Below, piece after piece: positions 1,026 to 46,757 of a DNA stretch of 64,000 nt; within the stretch, counting starts at the first letter, position 1, and each line of letters begins with the position of its first letter. The stretch lies in assembly GCF_003018255.1 (NCBI RefSeq), contig NZ_CP027440.1; one strand, written 5' to 3'. Position numbers and translations under genes: made by a program. The DNA is from Escherichia coli (GTDB lineage Bacteria; Pseudomonadota; Gammaproteobacteria; Enterobacterales; Enterobacteriaceae). The notes under the pieces are model-generated. The model did not search any database. It saw nothing but the letters and a program-made list of their open reading frames with translations, and was not told the DNA's origin.

Positions 1026-1179
1026 GACAGGATTTCCTTGTGTATGTGGGGTGCTCTGTGGCGCTCGGAGATGTGATTTGATTGAGGGTTTTACAGCGCG
1101 GACATTTTACTTCCAGATAACTGAAACTGGCCCGTGCCAGTAGCTTATTGCAGTGTCGGCACCGTATGTTTCGATACAT
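979..1179 (-). CDS. com: Com zinc-finger translational activator of mom
   Basis: [14 protein letters not shown]...CPRCK matches Mu Com C4 zinc finger; ATG at 1179 preceded by AGGAGG; track start at 1224 is a TTG extension. Confidence 0.8.
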
Positions 1180-4460: not shown

Positions 4461-5021
4461 TTATTTTTCCGAAACGCTCGCAGGATAATAACGATAAAGG
4501 GTTGAAAGACCGATATCAAAAATAAGTGCCACCTGTCTTCGACTGACACCCCCGGCCAGTAAACGCCCGACCTGCTCGTATTGTTCCTGCGTGAGACGGC
4601 GGGGTCTGCCGCCGGTTCGTCCCCTTTCACGGGCAGCTGCAAGACCAGCCCGTGTCCGTTCGACAATTAATTCACGCTCCATTTCTGCCAGCGCACCCAT
4701 TATGTGAAAAAAGAAACGCCCCATGGGGGTTGACGTATCAATGTTGTCAGTAAGACTACGAAAATTTATCCCCTGTTGCTGTAATTCATCTGTCAGCGCA
4801 ACAAGGTGGCGCATACTGCGCCCCAGCCTGTCCAGTTTCCAGACCATCAGTGTGTCACCGGGTTTTAGTTTCTTCAGTGCCCGCTTCAGTCCCGGCCGCT
4901 GTGTCGTTTTACCACTCATTTTGTCTTCAAAAATCTGCTCACATCCTGCACATTCCAGCGCATTTCTTTGTAAACCGGTGTTCTGGTCATTTGTTGATAC
5001 GCGTATATAGCCAATCAGCAT
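4461..5021 (-). CDS. gin: Gin/Hin/Pin-family serine DNA invertase
   Basis: MLIGYIRVSTNDQNTGLQRNAL...GRFFFHIMGALAEMEREL closely matches Mu Gin. Confidence 0.95.
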   Translation of the reverse strand: MLIGYIRVSTNDQNTGLQRNALECAGCEQIFEDKMSGKTTQRPGLKRALKKLKPGDTLMVWKLDRLGRSMRHLVALTDELQQQGINFRSLTDNIDTSTPMGRFFFHIMGALAEMERELIVERTRAGLAAARERGRTGGRPRRLTQEQYEQVGRLLAGGVSRRQVALIFDIGLSTLYRYYPASVSEK

Positions 5022-5075
5022 GTATTTACCTTCCTTAAAAAGAGGTGAAAATGCCTTTTAAAACAGATATACGGT

Positions 5076-5101: not shown

Positions 5102-5471
5102 AACGGTAAATAAGGCTGCTGATGCCCTGCCATCGGGTGGAACCGCCGTGGCAGCAAACAGACTCGCCACCCCAAGAAATATTAATGGCGTTCCTTTTGA
5201 CGGAACGCAGGATATCAACATCACGTCAGGAATGACGCAGTCAACCGCAGATGGCCGGTATGTACAGAATGTTCAGCTTGGAGCACAGAGCTATCATTCA
5301 CCCGGAGGCAATGAAATATCATGGAATTACAGCGCACCTTCCGGTTGTATGCTTTCCGGTATTAACGTGCAGGAAACCGGCTCCCGGTCTGCGGACAATA
5401 TCGGTGGGGTCTATTATCGCCCGGTTCAGATTTATATTAATAATGCCTGGAGAACGGTAAGTTCAGTGTAA
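5091..5471 (+). CDS. Alternative tail-fibre C-terminal segment (Sv'), promoterless, expressed only after inversion
   Basis: Plus-strand frame GLRETVNKAADALPSGGTAVAANRLATPRNINGVPFDGTQDINITSGMTQS... parallels the C-terminus of the tail fibre on the minus strand. Confidence 0.65.
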   Translation, partial: GLRETVNKAADALPSGGTAVAANRLATPRNINGVPFDGTQDINITSGMTQSTADGRYVQNVQLGAQSYHSPGGNEISWNYSAPSGCMLSGINVQETGSRSADNIGGVYYRPVQIYINNAWRTVSSV

Positions 5472-5505
5472 ACCACAGAAAAGGGTGCTGAATGCACCCT
5501 CTGAA

Positions 5506-6138
5506 TTATTCCGGTTTTTCCGGCCAGGGAATCGCCTGGTAATGCCCCTCACTGGCAATATCATTAAAGTGCATTTCTTTAAGCTGTCGGATATACGCCA
5601 TCCAGCGCGTCAGCTGTAATTTATTTTCATCGCTAATCATGTCCAGTTTTAATTCTGTTTTCCAGTCATCCACGGTTTCGTTGGCTTCCTGGAGCAGCGA
5701 TGAGCGACGCTTTTCAGCAACCGTCTTCCAGTTTACCGGCACCTTTGATATCAGGCCATCAGAAAACTGCCAGTTACCGTCAATATTCACACCTTCCGGC
5801 AGTTCGTCCACTTCAACAACAGTAAAACCTGCCGGATATAAAGCAGAGACATCTTCAGCAACAGAGCAGATAATACCCGTTACAGGCGAAATACAGAGTT
5901 TGTATTTCTTTGTGAAAAGCGGGATAGATTCATAAAAATCCCTTCCGTCCTCACTCTGGAAATACTGAACATCCTCACCATAGGGTTTGTGTTCCGGGTA
6001 ATATCGTTTTACGTTAATAAGCTCCATTATTTCACCTTGTTTTTGTTGAAAAGACAAAATCATCATATATTTATTCAGATAATCTGTTTTTTGAACTACT
6101 GCACTTTTATGCGCTGGAAGCTGTTTTCCACGAACCAT
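5506..6138 (-). CDS. Tail fibre assembly chaperone (U/Tfa-like)
   Basis: 210-aa ORF immediately downstream of the tail-fibre variable part, inside the invertible segment. Confidence 0.7.
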   Translation of the reverse strand: MVRGKQLPAHKSAVVQKTDYLNKYMMILSFQQKQGEIMELINVKRYYPEHKPYGEDVQYFQSEDGRDFYESIPLFTKKYKLCISPVTGIICSVAEDVSALYPAGFTVVEVDELPEGVNIDGNWQFSDGLISKVPVNWKTVAEKRRSSLLQEANETVDDWKTELKLDMISDENKLQLTRWMAYIRQLKEMHFNDIASEGHYQAIPWPEKPE

Positions 6139-6994
6139 CTATCAGAAACTGAACAGGTCGATAATATGCGGTTACCGTTGCATTACCATCACCAGCGACA
6201 TCAAGCCCTGTAAGTACGCATCCGTCAGGAACTTCAAAAATATTATATTGCATTCCAATCGTTGACCTTGAACCTCTTCGAATGCTTTGAACATAACGTG
6301 AGTCAGCCACAGACTGCGTCATCCCCGATGTAATATTTATATCCTGCGTTCCGTCAAATGGGACACCATTAATATTTCTTGGAGTGGCGAGTTTATTCGC
6401 TGCAACAGCCGTTCCGTTCGATGGCAGGGCATTCGCCGCCTTATTTACCGTTTCCCGTAAACCGACGTTATCGATAAAAGCGCCTTTATCCGGAATGTCT
6501 GCGCCGTTCTGCTCCCTGCGCAGGTAACGGTTATCACCTTCGCTTTTGCTGTAAACATCCAGATTATTACGGGCGGTTCCCGCATTCTCCAGGTCGGCAA
6601 GGTTCTGATCCTTCGCCAGAGCATTAACGTCACCGGGACCAAGACTGTTTTTTGTGGCAAGCGCCCCAAGACCAAGATAACCACGGGCAAGACGCTGGGC
6701 TTCCGCACCGGCATCAGCAATTTCTTTCAGGTTGTTTTTCCGGGAAAAGGCATTCGCAGCGATAATGGCTTTAATGGACAGCGTAAGCTGGTTTAACTGC
6801 GCCTTATCCGGCTGAATACTGGCTTCAGCCAGAATATTCAGCAGTTCGGCCTGGAGAATATTCAGCCAGTCCTGACCAATCCAGCTGATACCTTTTTGTC
6901 CGTCACCTTCGGTAAACCAGGTGGTGGTATTACTCTGCGCCGGTGCCAGCGCAGGCATATTCGCCACGCCGGAATTATTATCAACATGAAACAT
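6107..6994 (-). CDS. Tail fibre protein S (constant N-terminal part plus invertible C-terminal part)
   Basis: 295 aa; C-terminal ~115 aa lie within the invertible segment; crossover falls at IDNVGLRETVNK. Confidence 0.75.
   Translation of the reverse strand: MFHVDNNSGVANMPALAPAQSNTTTWFTEGDGQKGISWIGQDWLNILQAELLNILAEASIQPDKAQLNQLTLSIKAIIAANAFSRKNNLKEIADAGAEAQRLARGYLGLGALATKNSLGPGDVNALAKDQNLADLENAGTARNNLDVYSKSEGDNRYLRREQNGADIPDKGAFIDNVGLRETVNKAANALPSNGTAVAANKLATPRNINGVPFDGTQDINITSGMTQSVADSRYVQSIRRGSRSTIGMQYNIFEVPDGCVLTGLDVAGDGNATVTAYYRPVQFLIDGSWKTASSA
6451..6475. other. gix-like recombination site (inside tail fibre gene)
   Basis: ttcccgtaaacc-ga-cgttatcgata; inverted partner of 5076-5101. Confidence 0.7.
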
Positions 6995-21008: not shown

Positions 21009-21129
21009 ATTGCCTCCGTATAAAATATGAATATAAAATAAGCAGGCGGTCAGTGTACGCTTAACTGGTAAAGTCGGTGCCTGCCTCCGGGTGGATCATG
21101 TATGCGGGTTCGACCCCCGCCACTGACCG

Positions 21130-22461
21130 TTAATCAATATCTCCTTCCAGTACCTCAAGCATTCCGCCCCGGATATCCGATTTCAGCTTATCCATATTGA
21201 TAACCCGGTAAGCATTAACAATCACATCCAGTTTATCCGGCTGACGCTTCAGGCTGTACGGTGCATTAACGGCAATCTGCACACTGCCATCCTGATTTTC
21301 CACGATATACATCAGATTGTTGTGCCGTTTGTCCCACAGTACCGCTTTTGGCCTTGCCAGCATTGCCGGTAAGCGCCCGAAATCCTCCGGTGTCAGGGCG
21401 ATACCGTCATTCTGATGTTTCATGCTGTCCGCATGGAGCACATTTTTACCGCTCATCGCCAGCAGGCGGGCCGGTGGCGTTCCCGTCCGGCTTTCCACCG
21501 CCTGCGCAATGCTTTCGGTCATAAAGCCCAGCGTGCGGATATCGTTACCGCCTCGCCGGGTTTTCATGATGTTTTTTGCCCAGATGCGGAACGCCAGCTG
21601 CCGCTCCGGGCTGTTGTTCATCTCCTGAACCACCATTTCCCGTAACGCCGGGCTTTTCACCTCGATCAACTTGCGGAGCAGCGCCTGGTCTGTGCCGAAC
21701 GCCGCCGAACCGGGGTTATATGACCAGCCCACATCCGGTGTCATGGTTCTGGTGCCATCTGAATATGTGGTCACCGGCATTTCTCTGACTTCTCCGGTCT
21801 GCTTATCCACGCCAGCCTCAACATTGCGGGTGGAAAGATGATCCTGACCGGATGAAACGGATAACCCCATTGCATCCAGACGGGTCTGAGACAATGGCCG
21901 GACACGGCAGCGGCAGTTCCAGCCATTGGGTGGGTAGTGTGTATTCCAGAACGGATCGTCATAGCGGAATACCAGACCGTTAAGGGCGGAATGCGCCGGG
22001 CGGGTGCGGCTGTCCATCACCGCCACATACTGCCAGAACGGATGCGTGTCCGTGTTGTTCATCATCTGCGTGTAACGCCCGGCATTGTAAGCCACGCGGG
22101 TGTTCACGTTGTAAATCAGCGCCAGACGGCGGGGACAGCCCAGCTGCACTTCTTCTGCGTTACCGGCGCTGTCCACCACAATCTGCTTTCCCCACCATCC
22201 CAGCTTTTGCAGGCGGGGGGTCAGTGTGCGGATAAATGCTTTCTGTGAAATCCCCTCATCAATGGCCCGTTGCACTTCCGCCTGTAGTGTGGTCAGTACG
22301 TCCAGGCGTGCCACTTTTGCCGCCGTGAACGAACGGGCATGAACATCCGCGTCTGTTTCGAACCAGTTCCAGCTGATATGCGCCCCTTTGGCGCGGAAGT
22401 ATGCCACCGCCTCTTTTGAGGGAAGCGTGGCGGCATAACCTAAATCAATCCCCTGTGCCAT
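21130..22461 (-). CDS. Minor head protein (Mu F-like)
   Basis: 443 aa downstream of portal. Confidence 0.8.
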   Translation of the reverse strand: MAQGIDLGYAATLPSKEAVAYFRAKGAHISWNWFETDADVHARSFTAAKVARLDVLTTLQAEVQRAIDEGISQKAFIRTLTPRLQKLGWWGKQIVVDSAGNAEEVQLGCPRRLALIYNVNTRVAYNAGRYTQMMNNTDTHPFWQYVAVMDSRTRPAHSALNGLVFRYDDPFWNTHYPPNGWNCRCRVRPLSQTRLDAMGLSVSSGQDHLSTRNVEAGVDKQTGEVREMPVTTYSDGTRTMTPDVGWSYNPGSAAFGTDQALLRKLIEVKSPALREMVVQEMNNSPERQLAFRIWAKNIMKTRRGGNDIRTLGFMTESIAQAVESRTGTPPARLLAMSGKNVLHADSMKHQNDGIALTPEDFGRLPAMLARPKAVLWDKRHNNLMYIVENQDGSVQIAVNAPYSLKRQPDKLDVIVNAYRVINMDKLKSDIRGGMLEVLEGDID

Positions 22462-24043
22462 CCAGCATCCCCTTCATTTCCGCAGCAAACATGGCATCAC
22501 TGAGCAGCGTCATCAGGCGGGAATCATCCATTTCACGGTAAAGGGCAGGCAGGTCTGCCAGTGCCTCCGCCAGCCCCCGCGTTCTGATGGCATCAATGAC
22601 CGGCTCCAGTACCGGGTCGATGGCCTCCTGTAACCGGCGGGCAGGCACCGCATCCCCCATGTCGTCCAGTTCATCTCGGGGGCTGCTTTTCGCTTCCGGC
22701 AGTCTGGCAGCCAGCGCTGTCTGCTCTGTCTTCTCCTGTTTTTCCGGTGGCATCTCTTTGTCTGTCTGAGCAGGTTCATTGCCACTCTGACGGACACGGA
22801 AGATGGCTTCACCGGGGGCAGGCTGTGGAATACCGGTCTGCTCCCGTACCCAGGGATCAGGAATATCCATCCCCGTACTGAGCTGCATCACCGCACTGGT
22901 GATTTTGGTGATATCCCCCGGCTCTTTTGTCTGGAAACAGATACGCGGCAGGCGACGGATATCAATGGCGTGGGCGGTGTTCAGGGCATACAGCGGATAC
23001 ACCAGATCGCGGTTCAGCGTGGCGGCCAGCTGACGTAAATCAGAATCCCTGATTTCCCGGCGCACCTCGTTATGCACTTCACCCAGCGAACGTGCGCCCT
23101 TGTCTCCGGCTTCCGTGGTCAGCGTGCCGCCGAGGATAGCTTTGGAGATGGAACGCTCCCCCCACGAAATCATGGTTTCAAACGGATCGGCCTGACCGTT
23201 CGCTGCCGCCTGAAACTCCAGCGACATCCCGGCCGGGATGATCCCGCCTGTACGTCGCCCGATATCCATCACCGCCCGCATCAGGGCGCTTTTCTGCTCC
23301 GGTGTTGCCCCGGAGGGGTATTTACCGACCTTCATCGGCAGGCCGTACACCTCCAGAAATTCAGCCAGATCGCGCACGGAATAGTTTTTGAAAATGAACG
23401 GCCAGATAAGCGTTCTGACAAGCCCCGTCGCACCACCGTAGCCGGTGCGTGAACGTGACTGATGCACTATCCAGCCAAAGGGCTGAAACGCCACCCCGGC
23501 ATGGCTGCCGTCACGCAGCCGCAGTTCGCTCAAATCATCCGGGTTAAGGCAGAAATGCCCGCTGTCACGCCAGCGGATGGCGCGGATGATGTGCATTTTA
23601 CCGAGCATCCCGTGCTCAATCTCCATGCAGGAATAGCCTTTCAGGATGGCATCGGTGGCATCAAACAGCATGGCATCAAACCAGTCGGCGGAATGCAGAT
23701 ATTCGTCGAGCATTTCCGCGTCCTTTTTCTCATTCGCGCTGGCGTTCGGGGGCGGCTCAATACTCCAGGGCACGCCCTGAATGGCAAGACGTCGCTTGCC
23801 CAGCTCTGCAAAAAGGTGGGTATCCTTTTCTTCAATGTCAGCGGCCAGATCGGACTGGGCAATCAGATCGCCACGTTCAGCCCCGCGAAGGCACTGTGCC
23901 GCCCGGTTCGGGGTGATACCCGAGGCCGGATGTTCAATATAACGGCTGGCAATCTGCGGAATATCCAGCGCGGCGCTCTGCATCTCCGGGTCAAAGGAGA
24001 AAGGTTTTCCGTCAAGATCAATTATACGTCCCACTACCAGCAC
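22445..24043 (-). CDS. Portal protein (Mu H/gp29-like)
   Basis: 532 aa downstream of terminase large subunit. Confidence 0.85.
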   Translation of the reverse strand: MLVVGRIIDLDGKPFSFDPEMQSAALDIPQIASRYIEHPASGITPNRAAQCLRGAERGDLIAQSDLAADIEEKDTHLFAELGKRRLAIQGVPWSIEPPPNASANEKKDAEMLDEYLHSADWFDAMLFDATDAILKGYSCMEIEHGMLGKMHIIRAIRWRDSGHFCLNPDDLSELRLRDGSHAGVAFQPFGWIVHQSRSRTGYGGATGLVRTLIWPFIFKNYSVRDLAEFLEVYGLPMKVGKYPSGATPEQKSALMRAVMDIGRRTGGIIPAGMSLEFQAAANGQADPFETMISWGERSISKAILGGTLTTEAGDKGARSLGEVHNEVRREIRDSDLRQLAATLNRDLVYPLYALNTAHAIDIRRLPRICFQTKEPGDITKITSAVMQLSTGMDIPDPWVREQTGIPQPAPGEAIFRVRQSGNEPAQTDKEMPPEKQEKTEQTALAARLPEAKSSPRDELDDMGDAVPARRLQEAIDPVLEPVIDAIRTRGLAEALADLPALYREMDDSRLMTLLSDAMFAAEMKGMLDGTGD

Positions 24044-25698
24044 CCCCGATCAAATTCATGATATGCCTCATCGTCATCACGATAACCGCCCTCCATGGCC
24101 CGCGACCGCTCCGGCAGCGCCTGACAGGCTGATTCATCCAGGATGAAGCCCTCCATGTATGACGCCCGGTTTGCCATACAGAGCGCCACGGCAAAATCGC
24201 CATGGCGGCGGGCGTTCACAGCCGTTGCGTTCTGGTCCTTCGTACGCCCCTTGTCAATTTGCGGGATACCGTTCACCACCTTCACATGGCGCAAATCATC
24301 AAGCGTGGTCTGATGGCGGGCGACGAGGATATTCTGATCCTCAAACTCGGCCTTCAGTTTTGGCATCCACTCGCCGTACCACTTCGGCGATAACATCACG
24401 CAGTCGATGATGTCCGGGCCAAAGGCCAGCAGCGCGGCTTCGGCCAGATAGCCGCCGTTACCGGTGGCGTCGAACGCCGCACCGACCAGCGCCGGAACGC
24501 GGGTCAGGATGTACATCATCACCTGCTCCTGCTGGGCATACGGCAGGTTGCGCAGCTCCACGCGAAACACCTCGCGTTTTGCCAGGGATTCAGTGATTTC
24601 CAGCAGCACAAAGCAGGAGAGGTCACCGATGCGGGCAAAGTCTTCCCCGAAGCTGAAGCGGGAACGGGGATTTAACGCCTCTAAAAGCGGTTTTAAATGT
24701 TCTTCACACCAGGTTAAAACCTCCGATTCACGCAGCCATGCGGCACGGCTGATGAAGTCGTCCGGGGCTTCAAACGTCAGAATCGGGATGTCGCGGAGCA
24801 TCGCCATTTCAATAAGCGCGTGAGGAATATAGGCACCGCCGGATTTTTTCGGGATACAGCCGTATTCCTCGTCGGCATCCTCACGGGTCGGGGCGTTTTT
24901 GTAGAGATCATCACGCCACTTCTGCTCGCTTTCCGGTGACCATTCGCGGCCGGTGACATAACAGATACGACGGTACAGCCCGTCCGCAATGGCATCATCC
25001 AGGGTAATGCGGTGGACGCTGTAATCCTTGCGCCCCTCGCGGGCTTCCTGAATGTACTGATTAAACAGATTATCGACGCCGTTATGCGTGGAGATAATAC
25101 GCACGCGCGCGCCCCACATGGTGAGCGCCATTGCCGCCTTGAGAAGCTCATCCAGTGACTCGTGGAACGCGGCTTCATCAATCACCACATCCCCCTGAAG
25201 GCCGCGCAGGTTTGACGGACGGGAAGACAGTGCCTGAATTTTGAATCCACTGTTCGGAAAGCGGATCATGTAGGTCAGAATTTCTTCTTTTTTATCCCGA
25301 TCCCAGAAGGTCTGCTCATACACATCAGCATCTGCCAGCTGGTTAAAGGCACGGGAGAACAGTGCGCAGGCAGAAATATATTCCAGCGCCATCTCCTGCT
25401 TTGACCCCACATAAAACACATTGCGGCCACCACGCCGCTTAGGCTTTGCGGCGGTAATGACGTTACGCCCGGCTTCCGCCCAGGTAAGCCCGGTGCGGCG
25501 GGATTTTTCCGCGATGCAGACCTCGCTTTCATCCTCAAACCAGCGGGCCTGATAATCCAGAAATACCGGCATATCACCGGGCAAATCAAGGCTGTCCGGC
25601 ACATCCACGCCCAGCAGGGCTTTTTCACCGGCCAGATCAATTTTGCGGGTGGAGACGGTATTCGTCAGTAAGGGGGAGAGTTCTTCGGCGTTATTCAT
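24034..25698 (-). CDS. Terminase large subunit (Mu gp28-like)
   Basis: 554 aa, position. Confidence 0.85.
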   Translation of the reverse strand: MNNAEELSPLLTNTVSTRKIDLAGEKALLGVDVPDSLDLPGDMPVFLDYQARWFEDESEVCIAEKSRRTGLTWAEAGRNVITAAKPKRRGGRNVFYVGSKQEMALEYISACALFSRAFNQLADADVYEQTFWDRDKKEEILTYMIRFPNSGFKIQALSSRPSNLRGLQGDVVIDEAAFHESLDELLKAAMALTMWGARVRIISTHNGVDNLFNQYIQEAREGRKDYSVHRITLDDAIADGLYRRICYVTGREWSPESEQKWRDDLYKNAPTREDADEEYGCIPKKSGGAYIPHALIEMAMLRDIPILTFEAPDDFISRAAWLRESEVLTWCEEHLKPLLEALNPRSRFSFGEDFARIGDLSCFVLLEITESLAKREVFRVELRNLPYAQQEQVMMYILTRVPALVGAAFDATGNGGYLAEAALLAFGPDIIDCVMLSPKWYGEWMPKLKAEFEDQNILVARHQTTLDDLRHVKVVNGIPQIDKGRTKDQNATAVNARRHGDFAVALCMANRASYMEGFILDESACQALPERSRAMEGGYRDDDEAYHEFDRGCW

Positions 25699-26279
25699 CA
25701 GGCTTTACCCAACAGAATCCCCTTAATACGGGACTCAAGCTGTTCACTCATCCCGTCCACGCCGCGCAGCTCGTCGGTGACGGCGTTTGCCATCTCTTCA
25801 GCAAATGCAGCCCGGATTTCTTTTTCACGCTTAATGCTGCGCTCGGCGGCACTTTCCGCACGCTGTGCTGACAGGAGGATGTCCTTAATAAGACGCATAT
25901 CCACGTCGCTGTCACTGTTCAGGGATTCGGTCGCGGCACGCAGACGGCGGTACATCAGGGCGCGGGACATCTCCAGAATCAGCGCTGTGGTTTCACCGGT
26001 TGGCTTGTCTCCCAGTTCGGCCATCATGGCTTTTGTCTGCTCGCGTAAATCACGCAGGTTACGGGCAATCAGCTCATTACGGGAGGCTTCCCGGCTGATG
26101 GCCGCCGGTGAAAGCTGCTGCTCTTCCGGCAGGCCCGCCTCACGGATCAGACGGTTGATTTCCTCGCGTATCTGGACCTGCGTCAGACGTTTTTCACGCA
26201 GCATTTCCAGCAGTGGCTTACGGATGCTGTCGGGGAGCAAATCCACCTTGCGCACGCGTCCACGCGTCGGCTTGTCCAT
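25698..26279 (-). CDS. Terminase small subunit (Mu gp27-like)
   Basis: 193 aa, charged helical protein just upstream of large terminase. Confidence 0.7.
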   Translation of the reverse strand: MDKPTRGRVRKVDLLPDSIRKPLLEMLREKRLTQVQIREEINRLIREAGLPEEQQLSPAAISREASRNELIARNLRDLREQTKAMMAELGDKPTGETTALILEMSRALMYRRLRAATESLNSDSDVDMRLIKDILLSAQRAESAAERSIKREKEIRAAFAEEMANAVTDELRGVDGMSEQLESRIKGILLGKA

Positions 26280-26281
26280 CG

Positions 26282-26572
26282 TTACCCCCTTGCGCGTGGT
26301 TTCTTCACACCCGGAACGCTGGCGCGACCTTCCGCCACATCCTGACCCCGGCCGGTCAGTTCGGCGATGAAATAACCGTTAACGAGCGTGCGCTTACGCA
26401 CCAGTCCCTGCTCGGCAAGCCAGGCAATGTGGGTGTGAACGGTGTCGCGGGACACGCGGTGGCCGTAATCATCCAGACAGTCCTGGAGCACGGATTCACC
26501 CAGTTCACCGTTGTAATCTGCCAGCGACCGCAGAATGACCAGACGCTGATCTTCAGTAATGAAATCACTCAT
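26282..26572 (-). CDS. Hypothetical protein (Mu gp26-like)
   Basis: 96-aa ORF coupled to terminase genes. Confidence 0.5.
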   Translation of the reverse strand: MSDFITEDQRLVILRSLADYNGELGESVLQDCLDDYGHRVSRDTVHTHIAWLAEQGLVRKRTLVNGYFIAELTGRGQDVAEGRASVPGVKKPRARG

Positions 26573-26877
26573 TGCGTTTTTTTCCTTACAGCCTGCTCCA
26601 GCAGCAGTTCGTTCTGATAGGAGACAGAGCGGAGCGTGGCGTTCGTGGTTTTCAGTTCACCCCGCAGGGTCACGATTTCCACATTCAGACGGTTGACCTC
26701 GGCTTCTGTCGGCAGTGACGACAGGCGGGTTTCCACCTTCTCAACGCGGTCGGAGAGTTTTTCAAAGGCCTCGCGGGGGACAAACGTTTTGCGCATCAGC
26801 GCCATGAATATCCCGCCAGCGGTTGCCGTCGCCGAAAGGATCGGCACAACATAATCTTTAACGATGCTGACCCACAT
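26569..26877 (-). CDS. Membrane protein (Mu gp25-like)
   Basis: N-terminal TM helix followed by coiled coil. Confidence 0.5.
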   Translation of the reverse strand: MWVSIVKDYVVPILSATATAGGIFMALMRKTFVPREAFEKLSDRVEKVETRLSSLPTEAEVNRLNVEIVTLRGELKTTNATLRSVSYQNELLLEQAVRKKTQ

Positions 26878-27151
26878 GACGGGCCTCCATGATGTTCTGG
26901 CAGTTCACACAACGGATGGCATCCGGCACAGCAACAAGACGTGCGGCGGGGATCTCTCCGCCACAGTCCGCGCAGACACGTCTGCCCGGAGCATCCATTG
27001 CCCGGCGCTTACGTGTCAGCCGGTTACAAAGGGCGCGTTCTGATCCCCGCTCCATCACAGCCTGAGCACGATCTGAATCATCCATACCTTTTTCCTTACT
27101 TCGTCTTTCCTGCCGGAACAGCAGGCGTTCCGGCCATATCAGTAAATTCAT
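26858..27151 (-). CDS. TraR/DksA-family C4 zinc-finger protein
   Basis: CADCGGEI...RCVNCQ C4 motif. Confidence 0.65.
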   Translation of the reverse strand: MNLLIWPERLLFRQERRSKEKGMDDSDRAQAVMERGSERALCNRLTRKRRAMDAPGRRVCADCGGEIPAARLVAVPDAIRCVNCQNIMEARHVGQHR

Positions 27152-27467
27152 GTTGTCGCCGCGCCTCCAGACGACGAATACTGGCCTTGTCCACGTTGCA
27201 GTTCTTGATCACCGCCAGCAGTTGCAGGTTGTAAGTGACCGATGCCCCAAACGTGAACGGCTCCGGCGCAGGAGGGACCAGGCAGTCAGCCAGCCATTCA
27301 GCGGGGATCGGCACCGGCTTCACAGGCACGTATTTCACAGACGGCCCGGCGCACCCGATCAGCCACATCATCAGGAACAGGGGCAGAGGCCGCAGGCACT
27401 GCCGCCAGCGACCGGCGGACAACGCTCTGCTGCCCCTCGCTGTGCTGAATGTTCTGTTGTTTTTCAT
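27096..27467 (-). CDS. Putative o-spanin (Rz1-like lipoprotein) embedded in i-spanin frame; start uncertain
   Basis: Frame contains LFLMMWLIGCAGPSVKYVPVKPVPIP: lipobox LIGC followed by Pro-rich region. Confidence 0.4.
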   Translation of the reverse strand: MKNNRTFSTARGSRALSAGRWRQCLRPLPLFLMMWLIGCAGPSVKYVPVKPVPIPAEWLADCLVPPAPEPFTFGASVTYNLQLLAVIKNCNVDKASIRRLEARRQHEFTDMAGTPAVPAGKTK

Positions 27468-27819
27468 TCGTGGCCGCCTCACTGATTTGTGAAATGAGTT
27501 GCAGGGTGTGCTGCTGATTTGCCAGCACCTGACGCGCCTCATCCCGCTCACGCACAAGCACCTGATTATTGTCTTCAAGGCGCTGCGTCTTCTGGTGCAT
27601 TCCCCATATAGCGGCAACCAGTACAGCGATAATCCCCAGCGCCGCCATGCACGCCCCGGCAATCAGGGCCGGTAAGGCATTATTCACCGCAGCCACAGGA
27701 CACCCCGTAACAGCAGTACCGCACACAGCAGCGCTATCATGAGCGGTCGCCAGAAGCGGTTCAGACTTTCGGCAAGTCGTAGCGACATAACCATTCATCC
27801 GCCGAACGGCGGGCCTCAA
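27298..27819 (-). CDS. Putative i-spanin (Rz-like); true start probably downstream of track start
   Basis: TM segment LPALIAGACMAALGIIAVLVAAIWG followed by coiled coil; directly after endolysin. Confidence 0.55.
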   Translation of the reverse strand: MRPAVRRMNGYVATTCRKSEPLLATAHDSAAVCGTAVTGCPVAAVNNALPALIAGACMAALGIIAVLVAAIWGMHQKTQRLEDNNQVLVRERDEARQVLANQQHTLQLISQISEAATNEKQQNIQHSEGQQSVVRRSLAAVPAASAPVPDDVADRVRRAVCEIRACEAGADPR

Positions 27820-28261
27820 GGCCGGGGAGTTTCACCCCCTTTGAATAAATCCAGCGGATATACTGCTTACAGGACGCGGGCATCTGCCCGGCATTGATCA
27901 GGCGCAGAAGCGTGGAGTTGCGAAAGTTCGTTTCACCGGCCCAGAAGATCCACGAAGCCAGCGCCACCGTCTGACCACGGGTAAGCGGCACCTGAACACG
28001 CCGATCAATGGCCGCAAAGGCCCATTTCATGTCCTTTTCCAGTAGTTCCAGGCATTCTTCATCTGTCAGGGTCATACCCGGTTTCACATCCGGGCCGGTA
28101 TGGCCGTAACAGATGGTGGGTGTACCGGAGGGATCGATATACGTGGAGTTTTCTTTCCCTTCCCAGTAACCGGTGTAATGCGTGGCAATCGTGAACGTCC
28201 CGGCACCGGCCAGAACAAGGGCAATCAGCTTTTTACGCAGTGGTGCGGGGAGTTTTGGCAT
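27761..28261 (-). CDS. lys: Endolysin (lysozyme) with SAR-type N-terminal signal anchor
   Basis: 166 aa with N-terminal LIALVLAGAGTFTIA hydrophobic segment as in Mu SAR endolysin. Confidence 0.85.
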   Translation of the reverse strand: MPKLPAPLRKKLIALVLAGAGTFTIATHYTGYWEGKENSTYIDPSGTPTICYGHTGPDVKPGMTLTDEECLELLEKDMKWAFAAIDRRVQVPLTRGQTVALASWIFWAGETNFRNSTLLRLINAGQMPASCKQYIRWIYSKGVKLPGLEARRSADEWLCRYDLPKV

Positions 28262-28332: not shown

Positions 28333-28758
28333 TCAGAAAAGTGGCGGTTGCGTTCTTGCCAGATGCAGACGGCGCTGTTCGCGTATGACGGTATAAATCT
28401 GGGTTTCTGACATCCGGTAATGGCGGCGAAGGGATTCAATTTTCTCGCCCCGGTCCCAGCGCGAAAATATCTCATTGTTTCGCAGCTCGGCAAAGAGAGA
28501 TTCCCCGACCGGCAGGTAATAACCCCGTCCGCCCATATAGGCTGCCTGAGCCGCAGCCACCTTGCGTGCCAGTTTACCGGCCAGTACCGGCTCAATCCCC
28601 TGACGCTGAAGTTCTGCGCCGGTGACTTCAACCAGTTCTGACAGGGTCCGCGGCCAGTTCTTTTTGAGAACATCATCAGGGATGTCATCAAGGCGGTCGA
28701 TAAGGGCGTGCAGTTGCTCACTGTCACCACCAAACATGCTCATCTGAGTTTCTGCCAT
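28333..28758 (-). CDS. Mor/C-family transcriptional activator
   Basis: 141 aa with C-terminal HTH; resembles Mu Mor. Confidence 0.8.
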   Translation of the reverse strand: MAETQMSMFGGDSEQLHALIDRLDDIPDDVLKKNWPRTLSELVEVTGAELQRQGIEPVLAGKLARKVAAAQAAYMGGRGYYLPVGESLFAELRNNEIFSRWDRGEKIESLRRHYRMSETQIYTVIREQRRLHLARTQPPLF

Positions 28759-38999: not shown

Positions 39000-39311
39000 A
39001 ACGATGGATTGATTGATAACCTGCCACAAGGATGTTGCGTGGAAGTAGCCTGTCTGGTTGATGCTAATGGCATTCAGCCGACCAAAGTCGGTACGTTACC
39101 TTCGCATCTGGCCGCCCTGATGCAAACCAACATCAACGTACAGACGCTGCTGACCGAAGCCATTCTTACGGAAAATCGCGACCGTGTTTACCACGCTGCG
39201 ATGATGGACCCGCATACTGCCGCCGTGCTGGGCATTGATGAAATATATGCTCTTGTTGACGACCTGATTGCCGCCCACGGCGACTGGCTGCCAGGCTGGT
39301 TGCACCGTTAA
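39000..39311 (+). pseudogene. melA: melA alpha-galactosidase, 3' fragment downstream of prophage
   Basis: NDGLIDNLPQGCCVEV...DWLPGWLHR* continues the frame broken at 159. Confidence 0.7.
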
Positions 39312-39958
39312 GGGGTAATCGCTTCCGGCGCTCTGGTGATTAAGCCAAAGCGCCGTAGCTGGCGGCAATGAAAGCGAGCGAGGAATATCACCGTCGTTAA
39401 TGCGCCAAGCAGCGCGCAGAACATATCGGATTGCGTGTCCCACTGGTCGCCCTGGGTGCCGAGAAAATCATCCGCTCCCTGACCCATTGCCAGCGCCGCC
39501 CACCACTCGATTAATTCATACATCGCGCTTATCGCCAGCGCCACGCAGCAGACCAGAAACGCCACCATCTTATGTCCGTGAACGTACATCCCGCGCACAA
39601 GGATCTCTCGTGCCACCAGTGCAGGCACCAGCCCCTGGAAAAAATGTCCCAGTTTGTCATACGGATTACGGCTCAACCCCAGCCATTCCTGCACCTCAAA
39701 ACCAACGGGGACTTTCGCGTAGGTGTATTGTCCGCCGACCATCAGGATGATGGCGTGAAAGAAAATGAGCGTATAGAGCAGCGGCGTTAACGGATAACGT
39801 TTAGCGGTGGCAAGCAGTAGCGGCACGACAATAATCACCGGTGTCACTTCCATCAGCCAGGTGAGTTTGTCATTGGCCGAAATGCCGGTATAAATCAGGA
39901 TTAACGTTAGCGCCAGTGCGCCGGTGTTAAGAATTAACGGCTTGAGTGTGCGGGTCAT
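39308..39958 (-). CDS. yjdF: Inner membrane protein YjdF
   Basis: Multi-TM 216-aa ORF at the expected position upstream of fumB. Confidence 0.75.
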   Translation of the reverse strand: MTRTLKPLILNTGALALTLILIYTGISANDKLTWLMEVTPVIIVVPLLLATAKRYPLTPLLYTLIFFHAIILMVGGQYTYAKVPVGFEVQEWLGLSRNPYDKLGHFFQGLVPALVAREILVRGMYVHGHKMVAFLVCCVALAISAMYELIEWWAALAMGQGADDFLGTQGDQWDTQSDMFCALLGALTTVIFLARFHCRQLRRFGLITRAPEAITP

Positions 39959-40080
39959 GGTGAGTTCGCAAGTCAGGGAAAATACTGACTATTGACCAGT
40001 AAGCGTGAAATTACAATCGCAAAAGAGGTGGCCCAGGGGGATCACCTGGCAGCATGCTGCCAGGCGCTGGGCCGAAGAGG

Positions 40081-41727
40081 TTACTTAGTGCAGTTCGCGC
40101 ACTGTTTGTTGACGATTTGCTGGAAGAAGTCGTTACCTTTGTCATCGACCAGGATAAACGCCGGGAAATCTTCTACTTCGATTTTCCAGATAGCTTCCAT
40201 ACCCAGCTCCGGATAAGCGACGCATTCCAGATGCTTGATGCTCTGCTGCGCCAGTACCGCCGCCGGACCGCCGATACTACCGAGGTAGAAGCCGCCATGT
40301 TTATGACACGCGTCGGTAACCTGCTGACTGCGGTTACCTTTCGCCAGCATGATCATGCTGCCGCCGTGGGATTGCAGCAGATCCACGTAGGAGTCCATAC
40401 GACCTGCGGTGGTTGGGCCAAGTGAACCTGATGGATAACCGGCAGGGGTTTTCGCCGGACCCGCGTAGTAGATCGGGTGATCTTTGATGTACTGCGGCAG
40501 TTCTTTACCGGCGTCAATCAGCTCTTTCAGCTTGGCGTGTGCAATATCTCGGCCCACGATAATGGTGCCGGTGAGCGACAAACGAGTGGAAACCGGATAT
40601 TGCGAAAGCTGGGCGAGGATCTCTTTCATCGGGCGGTTAAGGTCGACCTTCACCGCTTCGCCTTCACCGGCCTGGCGCAGTTCTTGTGGAATGTACTGGC
40701 CTGGATTGCGTTCCAGCTTTTCGATCCAGATACCTTCGCGGTTGATTTTCGCTTTAATGTTACGGTCAGCGGAGCAGGAGACGCCCATGCCTACCGGGCA
40801 GGATGCACCGTGACGCGGCAGACGGATAACGCGAATATCGTGCGCGAAGTATTTACCACCAAACTGCGCGCCAAGACCGAGTTTCTGGGCCTCTTCCAGC
40901 AGTTCCTGTTCCAGCTGGACATCGCGGAACGCCTGACCATGTTCGTTCCCTTCCGTCGGCAGTTCATCGTAATAGTGGGCGCTTGCTAACTTGACGGTTT
41001 TCAGGTTGGTTTCCGCAGACGTACCGCCAATCACAAACGCGATATGGTACGGCGGGCAAGCTGCCGTACCGAGGGTACGCATTTTCTCGACGAGGAAGTT
41101 TTTCAGTTTGCCGGGCGTCAGCAGGGCTTTGGTTTCCTGGTAGAGATACGTTTTGTTGGCAGAGCCGCCGCCTTTCGCAACGCAAAGGAATTTGTACTCA
41201 TCGCCATCTACCGCGTACAGGTCGATTTGCGCAGGCAGGTTCGTGCCGGTGTTGACCTCTTTATACATGTCCAGCGGCGCGTTCTGTGAATAGCGCAGGT
41301 TATCTTCGATATAGGTGTTATAGACACCTTTCGACAGTGCTTCTTCATCACCGCCACCGGTCCACACGCGCTGGCCTTTTTTACCGACGATGATCGCGGT
41401 GCCGGTATCCTGGCAGGTCGGCAGCACGCCTTTGGCGGCGATTTCGGAGTTTCTTAAGAATTGCAGCGCCACGTACTTGTCGTTTTCGCTGGCTTCTGGA
41501 TCGTGAAGAATAGCCGCAACCTGTTTCTGGTGTGCTGGGCGGAGCATGAAAGAAGCGTCGTGAAAGGCTTGCTGCGCCAGCAGGGTCAGGGCTTCTGGTT
41601 CCACTTTCAGGATGGTTTCGCCGTCGAAGTCGGCAACGCTAACGTAATCGGAAGTGAGTAGATAGTATTCGGTATTGTCTTTCCCCATCGGGAAAGGTGC
41701 CTGGTAGATAAAGGGTTTGTTTGACAT
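40081..41727 (-). CDS. fumB: Fumarate hydratase class I, anaerobic
   Basis: 548 aa, [24 protein letters not shown]... Confidence 0.9.
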
Positions 41728-41804
41728 AGCTTCCAGCCTGTAACTCTGTATTTGTTATTCGAAAATGGCGTGCCGCGTAGTCACGGGCGGCACGCAAAGT
41801 GCAT

Positions 41805-43145
41805 TTATAAGAACCCGTACATCGCGGCGAAGATCCAGCCGAAGACGCACGATACGCTCACACCAATCAACCCCGGCAGAATAAAGCTGTGGTTGATGAC
41901 GAAGCGACCGATGTGGGTGGTGCCGGAACGGTCAAACTGAATCGCTGCCAGATCGCTCGGATAAGTCGGCAGGATGTAATAACCGTAGCAAGCCGGTGCT
42001 GAAGCCACGATGTATGCCGGATCAACGCCGATCGCCAGCGCGACCGGAACAATCGCCGCCAGCGCCGCAGCCTGAGAGTTTACAAACTTGGAAACCAGCA
42101 GCAGAACAATGGCATAGGCCCACGGATACTCTTTCACCATTTCGCCCAGTACGCCCTGAATTTCAGACATATGCGCACCGAACATGGTTTCAGCCATCCA
42201 TGCGATACCGTACACCGCCACGATGGCGATCATACCGGAACGGAAGACTTCGTTTTTTGAGATAGACGCGGGATTGGTTTTGGTCAGGATAATAATCAGC
42301 GCCCCGGTCAGCAGCATAAACATCTGAATAACCAGTACCATCGACAGCGGTTTGCCACCGAAGGATGGACGCAGGTCCGAATCAGCACCAAGAAGTGCGA
42401 CTACAGCGATTGCCCCGAGGAAGATCCACATTGCAAGCCAGTTGCTTTTCGGCAGTTTTTTATCGAGCAGCGTCGCGGTATCACCGTAAACATACTCACG
42501 GTTTTCCGGTATGGAGATGAATTTCTGGAACTCTTCGTCTTTATCCAGATCTTTACCGCGGAACCAGCTGAAGATACCGATCGCCAGGATACCGATTAAC
42601 GTCGATGGAATGGTGATTGCCAGCAGGTCGAGGAACTCAAGATGGCGACCATCAAAGGTGACATTACCCAGCATCGCAACCAGAGACACGACTGCAACCG
42701 ACACCGGACTGGCGATAATCCCCATCTGTGCACCGATAGAACTTGCCGCCATCGGGCGTTCCGGACGGATGTTGTTCTTAATGGCGACGTCGTAGATGAT
42801 CGGCAGAATGGTGTAAACCACATGACCCGTACCGCAAAGAATGGTCAGCGTACAGGTCACAAACGGCGCGACAATTGAGACATATTTCGGGTTGCGGCGC
42901 AGCAGCTTCTCGGCAATTTGCAGCATGACATCAAGACCGCCCGAAGCTTGCAAGGTCGCCGATGCTGCCACCACCGCAATGATAACCAGCATGACATCAA
43001 CCGGTGGTTTACCTGGCTGAAGGTGGAAGACGAAGACCAGAATGACCAGACCGATACCGCCTAATAAACCCAGCGCGATACCACCCTTTCTGGCACCATA
43101 AAACAGACATATCAGTATTATGATAAGTTGGATAGTAAATAACAT
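41805..43145 (-). CDS. dcuB: Anaerobic C4-dicarboxylate transporter DcuB
   Basis: 446-aa polytopic membrane protein, paralogue of DcuA in this window. Confidence 0.9.
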
Positions 43146-43715
43146 GTGTGAACCCTCGCGATAATCCTATTTAAATTTTTGCTGAATAGATCACAGTCAC
43201 GTTCTGTTTTGTATGAACTGTTTTCAGAGCCTGACTAAATATCCGTTTGGTCGTTACCGGCTTGAGCAAATACCTCACAGTGAATATTGGCTGATTAAAG
43301 CAGCGGCAAATTTATGCACTGTGATAAGCGGCTTTTTCAGAGAGAAAAACTCTCTGGCGATGGGTTTATAGTTTGTACTGCGCAGATGTTAATGTTTTGT
43401 TTGCTGTTATCTTATTGATATTTATCGGTCTATTTTTTGTTCTCAGGGCAGATATCATTAGGTTTATAGATTAATCTGATCTACCCATTTGTGGGTAAAA
43501 ATACACATAATACGGGTGACATAATAGTTAATTAACTTTTGTTAGCGTTTTGAAATTAAAAACACCGTTCACCTGAAGAGATATTAATTTTTAGCGATGA
43601 TGGAGGGATAATTATATTTGATCTGGCACAAGTTTTACTGATGAAGGATGTAACTTGTGCCAGGGGTATTTTGCATTACAGTAATAATTATTACTTACAG
43701 ATAACCAGCGATCCG

Positions 43716-44435
43716 TTATTGGCAATATTGTTTCAGTAGTGAGTAGTGTTCTGCCTGAATACGGTAACGGTAAACCGGACGCCCCGTGACGCCATAATGG
43801 ATACTGGTGAACAAGATGTGGCAGTTGACCAGCCAGATGAGGTATTTACGGCAGGAAACACGCGAAATGTTAACCTCGTTAGCCAGCTCGTCGGTTGAAA
43901 ACTCATAGTCCTGATGCGCGTCAATCCACTGACACAGCGTGCGTAACGTCTGCGGCGTTAAGCCTTTTGGCAAGCGACGAGGATCCTGCTCGTTGGAGCT
44001 GCTGCCGTGGATTAGCTGATCAAGCTCGGCCTGGTCATAATACTGATGTTTTTCCAGCGCCATTTTCTTTTGCCGCCAGCCGGTGAGCGCCTCTTCAAAG
44101 CGGGAAGCCTGGAAGGGTTTGATCAGGTAATCCACGACACCGTAATGCAGCGAATCTTTAATGGTTGCCGCATCGGCTGCGGAGGAGATGACAATCACAT
44201 CACTTTTGCAACGCGCGTTATGCAGGACAGGCAGTAAATCGAGCCCGTTCTCTTTTTGCATATAGATATCGAGCAATATCAGGTCGATAGGCGTATCGCT
44301 ATTGAAGATAATCTCTTTGGCTTTCTCCAGCGTCGAAGCCGTTCCACAGCATTGAAAGCCCGGGATTTGTGCCACGTATCGGCGATTCAGCTCCGCGACC
44401 ATTGCGTCGTCATCGATAATTAATACATTGATCAT
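43716..44435 (-). CDS. dcuR: Response regulator DcuR
   Basis: 239 aa, receiver domain plus HTH, overlaps dcuS stop. Confidence 0.9.
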   Translation of the reverse strand: MINVLIIDDDAMVAELNRRYVAQIPGFQCCGTASTLEKAKEIIFNSDTPIDLILLDIYMQKENGLDLLPVLHNARCKSDVIVISSAADAATIKDSLHYGVVDYLIKPFQASRFEEALTGWRQKKMALEKHQYYDQAELDQLIHGSSSNEQDPRRLPKGLTPQTLRTLCQWIDAHQDYEFSTDELANEVNISRVSCRKYLIWLVNCHILFTSIHYGVTGRPVYRYRIQAEHYSLLKQYCQ

Positions 44436-46063
44436 CTGTTCGACCTCTCCCCGTCCCAGGGTATCTGGACAAAAAATTGTGTGAAAATCCCGGGTTCCGA
44501 TTCCACGGCGATGCTGCCGCCGAGATTTTCTACCTGTTGTTTGACAAGTGCTAAACCGACGCCTCGCTCGCTTCCTTTTGTCGAGACACCTTTGTCAAAA
44601 ATGTGATCGATTTTGTCGGGTGCGATCCCCGGTCCATCATCGTTAACTTCGCAGTGCAGCCAGCCGTGACGGTAGTGCAATGTTACGCTAATTTCGCCAC
44701 CGGGTTCCGGTCCTAATGCCTCCAGCGCGTTTTCTATCAGATTTCCCAACGTGGTAATCAGCGTCGCGACCTGATCCTCACTACCGCTGTCTGGCAGCTG
44801 GCTTTCACTGTTTAAAATCAGCGTATGGCCTAAATCGGTCGCGCGGTTAATCTTGCTGATTAAAAAACCAGCGATAACCGGAGATTTGATCTTACCCAGC
44901 AGAGAGCCAATCTCTTCCTGATAGTTATTGGCTGTTTTGAGAATGTAATCTTCCAACTGCTTATAACTCTTCAGATGCAATAATCCGAGAATCACATGCA
45001 ATTTATTCATAAATTCGTGGGATCGTTCACGAAGTGCGTCAGCATAGTTGACCAGACCGTCGAGTCGCTGCATCAGTTTACGTACTTCAGTTTTGTCCCT
45101 GAAGGTTGAAATGGCACCGATGATAACGCCATTACTGCGCACCGGAACGGTGTTGATCAGTAATAGTCGGTCCTTAATCGTAATCTCTTCGTCGCGGCGT
45201 GGAGTACCGTCGCGTAACACTTCCGAGACATCTACCACCTGTGACCACGAGTGGCTTAGCGTCGACAGTTTCTCATCGTCCTGCGACTTACGGTAATTCA
45301 GCAATTCTTGTGCGGCATCGTTGATCAGCGTGACTTCACCGCGATCGTCCACGGCAACGACGCCTTCTTTGATAGACTGCAACATGGCCTGGCGTTGCTC
45401 AAACAGCGTGGAGATTTCGTAGGGTTCCAGGCCGAAAAGGATTTTTTTCAGTACTTTAACCAGAATGCAGGTGCCGATCAGCCCGACCAGCATGCCAAAT
45501 AATACCGACCAGATGATGCTCCAGCGACTGTCATTGATCTGTTGGGTCACGCGACTTAACTCAAGGCCGATCGCCACCACGCCAATTTGTTTATGATTTT
45601 CATCGTAGATGGGGGTAAATACGCGTAAAGCCTGCGCCAGAAAACCGCGATTGATAGCGACATTTTCTTCGCCATTCAGCGCTTTAAGGATGTCATCACC
45701 TTTAAATGGCTGACCAATACGCTGGGCTTCAGGATGCGAGTAGCGAAGACTTTGCATATCGGTAACGACAATAAACAGCAGATCGTTGCGTTTGCGCACG
45801 GCTTCCGCGATGGCCTGGATTCCACTCTCCTGTGGTTTTTTCTGCAAGCCCTGACGGATTTCCGGCGAGTCGGCGAGGGTACGCGCTACTGCCAGTGCCT
45901 TGTTAGCTAGCCCGTCTCGCGTCATATCACTGATTTGCGAGAAGTAAATCAGATGCACCACCAATAGCACCGAGAACAGTACCGCGCTGACCATTAAGAT
46001 CACTGTGGTACTCAATTTCATCGGACGTTTGCGTAACATGCGGTAGGGCAATGAATGTCTCAT
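44432..46063 (-). CDS. dcuS: Sensor histidine kinase DcuS
   Basis: 543 aa, TM plus periplasmic domain plus kinase. Confidence 0.9.
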   Translation of the reverse strand: MRHSLPYRMLRKRPMKLSTTVILMVSAVLFSVLLVVHLIYFSQISDMTRDGLANKALAVARTLADSPEIRQGLQKKPQESGIQAIAEAVRKRNDLLFIVVTDMQSLRYSHPEAQRIGQPFKGDDILKALNGEENVAINRGFLAQALRVFTPIYDENHKQIGVVAIGLELSRVTQQINDSRWSIIWSVLFGMLVGLIGTCILVKVLKKILFGLEPYEISTLFEQRQAMLQSIKEGVVAVDDRGEVTLINDAAQELLNYRKSQDDEKLSTLSHSWSQVVDVSEVLRDGTPRRDEEITIKDRLLLINTVPVRSNGVIIGAISTFRDKTEVRKLMQRLDGLVNYADALRERSHEFMNKLHVILGLLHLKSYKQLEDYILKTANNYQEEIGSLLGKIKSPVIAGFLISKINRATDLGHTLILNSESQLPDSGSEDQVATLITTLGNLIENALEALGPEPGGEISVTLHYRHGWLHCEVNDDGPGIAPDKIDHIFDKGVSTKGSERGVGLALVKQQVENLGGSIAVESEPGIFTQFFVQIPWDGERSNR

Positions 46064-46242
46064 CAGCTTCCTTGTGTGACAAATTTCTTAAGCATTATCT
46101 CTGATGAGGCGGGTAATTCAAAGGGAGTAAGAATGATTGGCATATAGGGGAAGAGACTCTGGCAACGGAAACTGCCAGTGCTGTATGAAGATTCCAGGGC
46201 TATGCTTATAGTGAAAACCATACTGATGAGAGAGGGAAGGTC

Positions 46243-46473
46243 ATGGATCAGGCGCTACTGGACAGGGGTTATCGCTGTTATACCGGCGAAAAGATCGATG
46301 TCTATTTCAACACTGCGATATGTCAGCATTCTGGCAATTGCGTACGTGGCAACGGCAAGTTATTTAATCTCAAACGAAAGCCGTGGATCATGCCGGATGA
46401 AGTCGACGTCGCCACTGTGGTTAAAGTGATTGATACGTGCCCGAGCGGCGCGCTGAAATACCGTCATAAATAA
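46243..46473 (+). CDS. yjdI: Uncharacterised protein YjdI
   Basis: 76-aa Cys-rich ORF. Confidence 0.8.
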
Positions 46474-46484
46474 GCGAGGGTAAA

Positions 46485-46757
46485 ATGGAAATACGCGAAG
46501 GCCACAATAAATTTTACATTAATGACGAACAGGGCAAGCAAATCGCTGAAATTGTCTTTGTGCCGACCGGAGAGAATTTAGCGATTATCGAACATACCGA
46601 TGTCGATGAAAGCCTGAAAGGGCAAGGGATTGGTAAACAGCTGGTTGCGAAAGTCGTGGAAAAAATGCGTCGGGAAAAACGAAAAATTATCCCACTATGC
46701 CCATTTGCGAAACACGAATTTGATAAAACGCGGGAGTATGATGATATTCGCAGTTGA
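46485..46757 (+). CDS. yjdJ: GNAT-family acetyltransferase YjdJ
   Basis: 90 aa. Confidence 0.8.

Follow-up and report, generated by a model that had tools for sequence, protein, structure and literature searches.

A gene within the lysis cassette of a Mu-like Escherichia coli prophage probably encodes an RNA polymerase (RNAP)-binding regulator of the TraR family, a 75-aa protein that would reprogramme host RNAP late in the lytic cycle independently of ppGpp. The gene lies on the minus strand of the window, the whole stretch of 64,000 nucleotides that was analysed, and its features and neighbours are collected in Table 1. An earlier reading of the same DNA, made from the sequence only, had proposed a 97-aa zinc-finger protein of the TraR/DksA type, a kind that binds in the secondary channel of RNAP and may reprogramme transcription in the host. 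The length has to be revised, while secondary-channel binding and transcriptional reprogramming are the best-supported functional prediction for the 75-aa protein.

Table 1. Coordinates of the TraR-family gene, its sequence features and the surrounding genes in the window
Feature	Position	Strand	Basis
TraR-family gene, 75 aa (MDDSDRAQ...GQHR)	26858..27085	(-)	Stop TAA 26860-26858; PGAP CDS WP_000342749.1; TIGR02419
DxxDxA 'acidic tip', codons D2-D3-S4-D5-R6-A7	27065..27082	(-)	Homologue columns; motif role from PMC9239242
C4 zinc ribbon C38, C41, C59, C62, with R49 and L50	26900..26974	(-)	PF01258 residues 36-66; column statistics
Shine-Dalgarno AAGGA	27097-27093	(-)	7 nt 5' of ATG 27085; sequence reading
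22-codon upstream extension of the ORF	27086..27151	(-)	Overlaps o-spanin 3' end in another frame; no profile coverage
Mor/C-family transcription activator	28333..28758	(-)	PF08765 E 3e-32
Phage lysozyme (endolysin), first gene of the lysis/late block	27761..28261	(-)	PF00959 E 8e-37
i-spanin (Rz-like)	27298..27726	(-)	phrog_214 'Rz-like spanin' E 6e-32; PGAP 'endopeptidase'
o-spanin (Rz1/LysC-like lipoprotein), immediately upstream	27096..27338	(-)	PF23793 LysC E 5e-16; PGAP lysC
DUF2730 gene, Mu gp25 releasin homologue	26569..26877	(-)	PF10805 E 7e-20
gp26-like gene	26282-26572	(-)	
gp27 small terminase	25698-26279	(-)	PF11985 Phage_Mu_Gp27 E 2e-33
Large terminase	24034-25698	(-)	
Portal	22445-24043	(-)	

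The window holds a 97-codon ORF from ATG to TAA on the minus strand (26858..27151, from the ORF list and the sequence), and the sequence-only reading took this full length, with its boundary at 27151, as the gene. That call is contradicted by the starts of the profile matches, the PGAP annotation, the Shine-Dalgarno sequence, the homologues and a deletion in the Sp18 prophage of E. coli O157:H7 Sakai, and the real gene is almost certainly the 75-aa form listed in Table 1. The choice of start matters because the acidic motif must stand at a free N-terminus; in TraR, this motif lies at the free N-terminal end of the helix that reaches toward the RNAP active site (PMC9239242). In the 97-aa ORF, every profile match has its start at residue 23-24, and the full length of the TIGR02419 model (positions 1-64) is covered by residues 2-67 of the 75-aa form. 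PGAP makes the same 75-aa call, WP_000342749.1, in genomes 100% identical to the window. The ATG at 27085 follows its Shine-Dalgarno sequence directly after the stop codon of the o-spanin gene lysC (27098-27096), with a gap of 10 nt from stop to ATG, and the ATG at 27151 lies inside the o-spanin gene with a GGAGG 12 nt upstream.

An exhaustive HMMER search of 1.84 billion representatives returned 820 matches at E <= 1e-3, most of them 67-80 aa long, and their residue 1-3 aligns to residue 1-2 of the 75-aa form. The homologues lack the 22-residue extension; of 143 small ones, 106 have DxxDxA beginning at residue 2 or 3. A 1-nt deletion shortens the A-run 27093-27089 in Sakai Sp18 and shifts the upstream ATG to another frame; ahead of MDDSD only three codons stay open there, none of them a start codon, and the 75-aa frame is unbroken. 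This run, between the o-spanin stop and the TraR start, has five A in the window and four in the Sakai copy. Among sampled copies, nine at 98.2-98.8% identity (Sakai included) measure 600 rather than 601 bases, which fits the same deletion, read directly in Sakai alone. A codon-level comparison of the frames in the overlap 27099-27151 had only 1-2 substitutions to work with, and the choice of frame there is settled by the Sakai indel.

A genuine 97-aa product from ATG 27151, with the acidic motif internal and an action unlike that of TraR, is therefore extremely improbable in view of the Sakai frame, in which the extension falls out and the 75 codons are kept. The 97 codons are open in the window and in several copies at 81-99% identity, some gene callers give 97 aa, and the GGAGG ahead of ATG 27151 is real; the high conservation of the 22 residues among E. 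coli copies is nevertheless accounted for by their overlap with the coding end of the o-spanin gene. The spacing of the Shine-Dalgarno sequence is better at ATG 27085, PGAP gives 75 aa, and the family profiles agree with the homologues in placing DxxDxA at the very N-terminus. The extension is probably not translated as part of the TraR-like protein, though an occasional start at ATG 27151, behind its GGAGG, is conceivable.

Family assignment of the 75-aa form rests on several profile collections, all of which uphold the TraR/DksA-type C4 zinc finger proposed for the ORF, with matches far beyond chance. Pfam PF01258 (zf-dskA_traR) is matched by residues 36-66 at 45.9 bits (E 5e-12) against a cutoff of 24.9, and by the 97-aa ORF at 45.4 bits (E 7.7e-12, cutoff 24.9). 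NCBIfam TIGR02419 (C4_traR_proteo, "phage/conjugal plasmid TraR family") is matched at 77.8 bits against its curated cutoff of 59.7 by the 75-aa form and at 76.8 bits (E 1.4e-21, cutoff 59.7) by the ORF, and PHROG 54, 'DksA-like zinc-finger protein', is matched at E 1e-19. The more specific models stay below threshold: the F-plasmid TraR equivalog NF010268 reaches 24.8 bits against a cutoff of 108, and the DksA models TIGR02420 and NF008045 reach 25.5 bits against 115.5 and 23.2 against 289, respectively. By these scores, the 75-aa protein is classed as a TraR family member that is neither the F TraR orthologue nor DksA. A TraR-profile scan of the window's six-frame ORFs found no second TraR homologue.

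Both features whose absence had been named as telling against the zinc-finger claim, the C4 set and the acidic tip, are present. The N-terminus MDDSDRA carries DxxDxA, a motif defined by D3, D6 and A8 in TraR and by D71, D74 and A76 in DksA (PMC9239242). Among aligned homologues, D2 and D5 each occur in 124 of 133 and A7 in 113 of 133. The four zinc-binding residues form a CxxC-x17-CxxC array (C60, C63, C81 and C84 in 97-aa numbering), in which C38, C41, C59 and C62 align with TraR C37, C40, C58 and C61 at the same x17 spacing; C38, C41 and C59 are invariant, and C62 is found in 131 of the 133 homologues. R49 corresponds to TraR R48, which contacts the β' rim helices, and is invariant (133/133). 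At the next position, where TraR R49 contacts β'Si3 and contributes to activation (PMC9239242), the protein has Leu (L50) in place of Arg. Leu is also the residue in most relatives (84/133, with Arg in 26/133), and DksA, as read from the DksA alignment, has Leu there too. The activation function may be altered by L50; family membership should be unaffected, since not all members have Arg at this position. In the C-terminal helix, E67 is shared by 120 of 133 homologues.

An AlphaFold model built from 132 sequences (pLDDT 76) places a helix at residues 3-29, a zinc knuckle and a second helix at 60-73, a predicted three-element fold of about 70-80 aa. In a Foldseek search of the PDB, the top matches of the model are RNAP-bound TraR (6n57_M and 5w1s_M; 73 columns, TM about 0.5), followed by DksA; such a moderate TM is no surprise when an extended protein is modelled on its own. 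The closest PDB sequences give the same order, with TraR 5w1s/6n57 at E 2e-5 and DksA next. Copies at 90-94% DNA identity carry 10-13 nonsynonymous and 11-14 synonymous codon changes, none of them at the motif D/A, Cys or Arg49 positions, a rough indication that the TraR-like gene may be under purifying selection. In a natural E. coli allele of 71 aa (P0011), a C-terminal frameshift takes away both the fourth zinc-binding Cys and the C-terminal helix, and this allele is presumably inactivated.

The proposed mechanism is modelled on homology with F-plasmid TraR and lambda Orf73, to which our analysis adds the gene structure, family, motifs, predicted fold and synteny. The N-terminal helix would enter the RNAP secondary channel, bringing the DDSDRA motif near the active site; the zinc-ribbon domain, with its invariant Arg49, would dock on the β' rim helices, and the C-terminal helix would touch the β lobe (Si1). 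Open-complex kinetics would be altered without ppGpp, with inhibition of rRNA and ribosomal-protein promoters and an advantage to some others, and host resources would thereby be redirected to the phage. We infer RNAP binding, target promoters, timing and phage benefit for the 75-aa protein. Like TraR itself, all five of the phage or prophage homologues tested bind RNAP, inhibit promoters of rRNA and r-protein genes and can complement a dksA deletion (PMC9239242). [quoted passage not shown] Mutation of DxxDxA to NxxNxA in VP882 TraR abolished growth arrest (preprint 10.64898/2026.07.27.740977).

The gene had been placed between packaging and lysis genes. In transcriptional order, lysis genes do lie upstream and packaging genes downstream, but the gene lies within the lysis cassette, flanked by the spanin genes and the releasin-like DUF2730 gene, rather than simply separating two modules. 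Mu gp25, the prototype of DUF2730, is a 'releasin' that frees the SAR endolysin gp22, and the Mu spanins are gp23 and gp23.1 (PMC9239132); with a releasin-type DUF2730 gene on one side and spanin genes on the other, the TraR-like gene is embedded in the cassette. The last 20 nt of the TraR gene overlap the DUF2730 gene, whose ATG (26877) has its own GGAGG 6 nt upstream. Packaging genes follow (24034..26572), identified by a phrog_436 match and by synteny with Mu gp24-gp28.

A terminator scan from the Mor-like gene to the terminase genes predicted no convincing terminator. A strong terminator-like hairpin with a T-run (AAATCCCGC...GCGGGATTT TTATTTT) lies at 28823-28800 (-), between the gp16/GemA-like and Mor-like genes, and probably marks the end of the early transcript. 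Another hairpin, at 26965-26942 (-) inside the TraR gene, was considered as a terminator and rejected: its 8-bp, GC-rich stem with a poor T-tract falls on the codons of CGGEIPAA and was put down to chance. Rfam and ARAGORN gave nothing relevant close to the TraR-like gene. The Mor/C-family product is the presumed activator of the downstream late operon, and the gap-free packing, the lack of a strong terminator and this upstream activator together point to late co-expression. Judged by gene order, transcription of the TraR-like gene most likely occurs late in the lytic cycle, together with that of the lysis and head genes.

This late setting bears on what the protein would be selected for. Of the five tested homologues, X. 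bovienii Gp34 among them, four can be assigned a context: lambda Orf73, P2 Orf82, VHML Orf8 and VP882 Orf61 lie in early or regulatory regions (early, replication, lysis-lysogeny; PMC9239242). A P2-like phage likewise has its Orf82-type TraR homologue in an early operon beside replication gene A. With four tested homologues in such regions, timing and targets may differ for a late-operon TraR-like gene. The protein might bind RNAP as TraR does and yet be selected for a role in the phage programme, tuning Mor/C-dependent late promoters or, like DksA, relieving transcription-replication conflicts during replicative transposition. Its place in the late/lysis operon, directly downstream of the Mor/C-family activator and in a context unlike that of the four early-region homologues, fits this idea, as does the activation of F-element promoters by F TraR (PMC9239242). 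Leu at the TraR R49 position would, if anything, weaken activation, and we consider such a phage-directed role unlikely.

Pairing with the DUF2730 gene recurs in relatives. A TraR-like gene that abuts or overlaps a DUF2730 gene directly downstream is found in Vibrio phage martha 12B12 and Shewanella phage MuM16-2, and the same pair occurs in 5 of 8 sampled metagenomic representatives (P0017, P0018, P0020, P0022 and P0100), the remaining three having other contexts or contigs too short to tell; the sample comprised these eight representatives and annotated phage records. The overlapping or abutting arrangement suggests translational coupling.

The corresponding slot in Mu, between the spanin genes and gp25 (DUF2730), is occupied by gp24, a 64-aa 'hypothetical protein' (phrog_3260; NC_000929 11524-11718). 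Gp24 has the same CxxC-x17-CxxC spacing, and hhalign against the TraR alignment gives 81.6% probability and E 1e-5 over the ribbon only; Pfam gave no TraR match. It reads ExxNxA where TraR-type proteins have DxxDxA, carries Val at the position of the invariant Arg and ends without the C-terminal helix; it looks like a degenerate TraR relative that may have lost its RNAP-contact determinants. With these three elements missing, an RNAP-directed activity must be dispensable in at least one well-studied relative, and this state leaves some room for a second, ribbon-mediated function. Neither the Mu lysis paper (PMC9239132) nor a 2026 paper on Mu late transcription mentions gp24, TraR or DksA.

The retained pair, with its 20-nt overlap in the window and its recurrence in martha, MuM16-2 and the five metagenomic representatives, is an argument for a lysis-module component that partners the DUF2730 releasin, for instance in the timing of endolysin release, with the ribbon as a protein-protein interaction domain and RNAP not the relevant target. 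Mu gp24, which keeps the ribbon and not the RNAP-contact motifs, points the same way, and so does a complex of VP882 TraR with a partner protein that is independent of DxxDxA (preprint 10.64898/2026.07.27.740977). Such a role would leave unexplained the strong conservation of DxxDxA and the invariant Arg in the Mu-like clade. Work on Mu lysis, in which the process was reconstituted and gp22, gp23, gp23.1 and gp25 were defined, makes no mention of gene 24 (PMC9239132). Its 'gp22-gp25' constructs presumably span gene 24, so that its role was not separated there. We hold this lysis-only role to be very improbable. A broader conjecture, to which we give little credence, is that the conserved and translationally coupled pair of Mu-like phages uses the zinc protein to link host RNAP shut-off to holin-less lysis timing, or for a lysis-related role independent of RNAP, with Mu gp24 as a stripped-down, ribbon-only version. 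An RNAP-binding regulator of the TraR type is the reading we retain for the 75-aa protein.

The host element is a Mu-like (Sp18-type) prophage spanning about 160-38999 of the window. Its Sakai relative is annotated 'prophage Sp18, Mu-like phage', and the gene there is named 'RNA polymerase-binding transcription factor'. A 2.3-kb region is present in 230 of 5,426 complete E. coli genomes (about 4%), O157:H7 included, with up to 4 prophage copies per genome. Here the insertion lies beside fumB-dcuB-dcuR-dcuS-yjdF (flank 39000-46500); strain Z869 has it within yfcC, as would fit insertion by transposition. A tail-fibre/tail-fibre-assembly segment (~5243-6311) is inverted relative to strain Z869 in an otherwise collinear prophage and adjoins a 'recombinase family protein' gene (~4464-5024); it looks like a host-range switch of the invertible Mu G-segment/Gin type. 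At the right end of the prophage, an unrelated small C4 zinc protein (Com-like, ...CPRCK; 979-1179, minus strand) overlaps the start of a 245-aa ORF (288-1025, minus strand), a layout that recalls Mu com-mom; PGAP lists the ORF as a hypothetical protein. The matching genome carries a RefSeq 'tRNA-OTHER' at ~21049-21128 (+), between head-morphogenesis and virion-morphogenesis genes, where ARAGORN and Rfam found no tRNA in the window.

The TraR-like gene is already known: the identical protein stands in RefSeq as 'TraR/DksA family transcriptional regulator' (WP_000342749.1), and TIGR02419 is defined for exactly such phage and plasmid proteins. Studies of F TraR and several phage homologues have established how the family works, and the significance of the present analysis goes little beyond correct annotation. 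The corrected start yields a 75-aa protein with its acidic motif at the free N-terminus, as the mechanism requires. Mildly new are the late context of the Mu-like clade, with its coupling to a releasin-type gene, and the apparent degeneration of Mu gp24, and this clade is a convenient case for what a late-expressed TraR does for a transposable phage.

Several characterized or annotated systems resemble the 75-aa protein to different degrees. E. coli DksA (151 aa) shares the zinc-ribbon fold, an identical D-x-x-D-R-A tip and binding in the RNAP secondary channel; the 75-aa protein has half its length and a single N-terminal helix in place of the two-helix coiled coil. Full activity of DksA needs ppGpp, whereas TraR-type proteins do not (PMC9239242). 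The Mu-like transposable Burkholderia phage KS10 encodes gp7, a 74-aa dksA/traR C4 protein, between its endolysin and terminase genes (PMC2628397). Its host belongs to another clade, and a 102-aa ORF precedes gp7 rather than following it. In 2008, its authors proposed repression of head genes (PMC2628397), a mode of action at variance with what is now known of TraR-type proteins; a DNA-binding zinc-finger repressor of this kind was considered for the 75-aa protein and rejected, as TraR/DksA proteins act on RNAP without binding DNA (PMC9239242).

The small TraR-family proteins lambda Orf73, P2 Orf82, VHML Orf8 and VP882 Orf61 have DxxDxA, the C4 set and the conserved Arg in common with the 75-aa protein, and a P2-like Orf82 homologue is about 38% identical to it by tblastn. 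Their genes are early or regulatory, whereas the gene described here belongs to a late lysis/head operon and overlaps a releasin-like gene; the tested TraR homologues all come from outside the Mu-like phages (PMC9239242). The closest counterpart of known structure is the F-plasmid TraR of E. coli (73 aa; PDB 5W1S and 6N57), the top PDB match in both sequence and fold and alike in size and in its three parts: an N-terminal helix that carries DxxDxA at its very start, a zinc domain with CxxC-x17-CxxC and the rim-helix Arg, and a helix at the C-terminus. The two proteins are about 30% identical and differ in the Leu that replaces TraR R49, and F TraR is encoded in a conjugative transfer operon, the 75-aa protein on a transposable phage.
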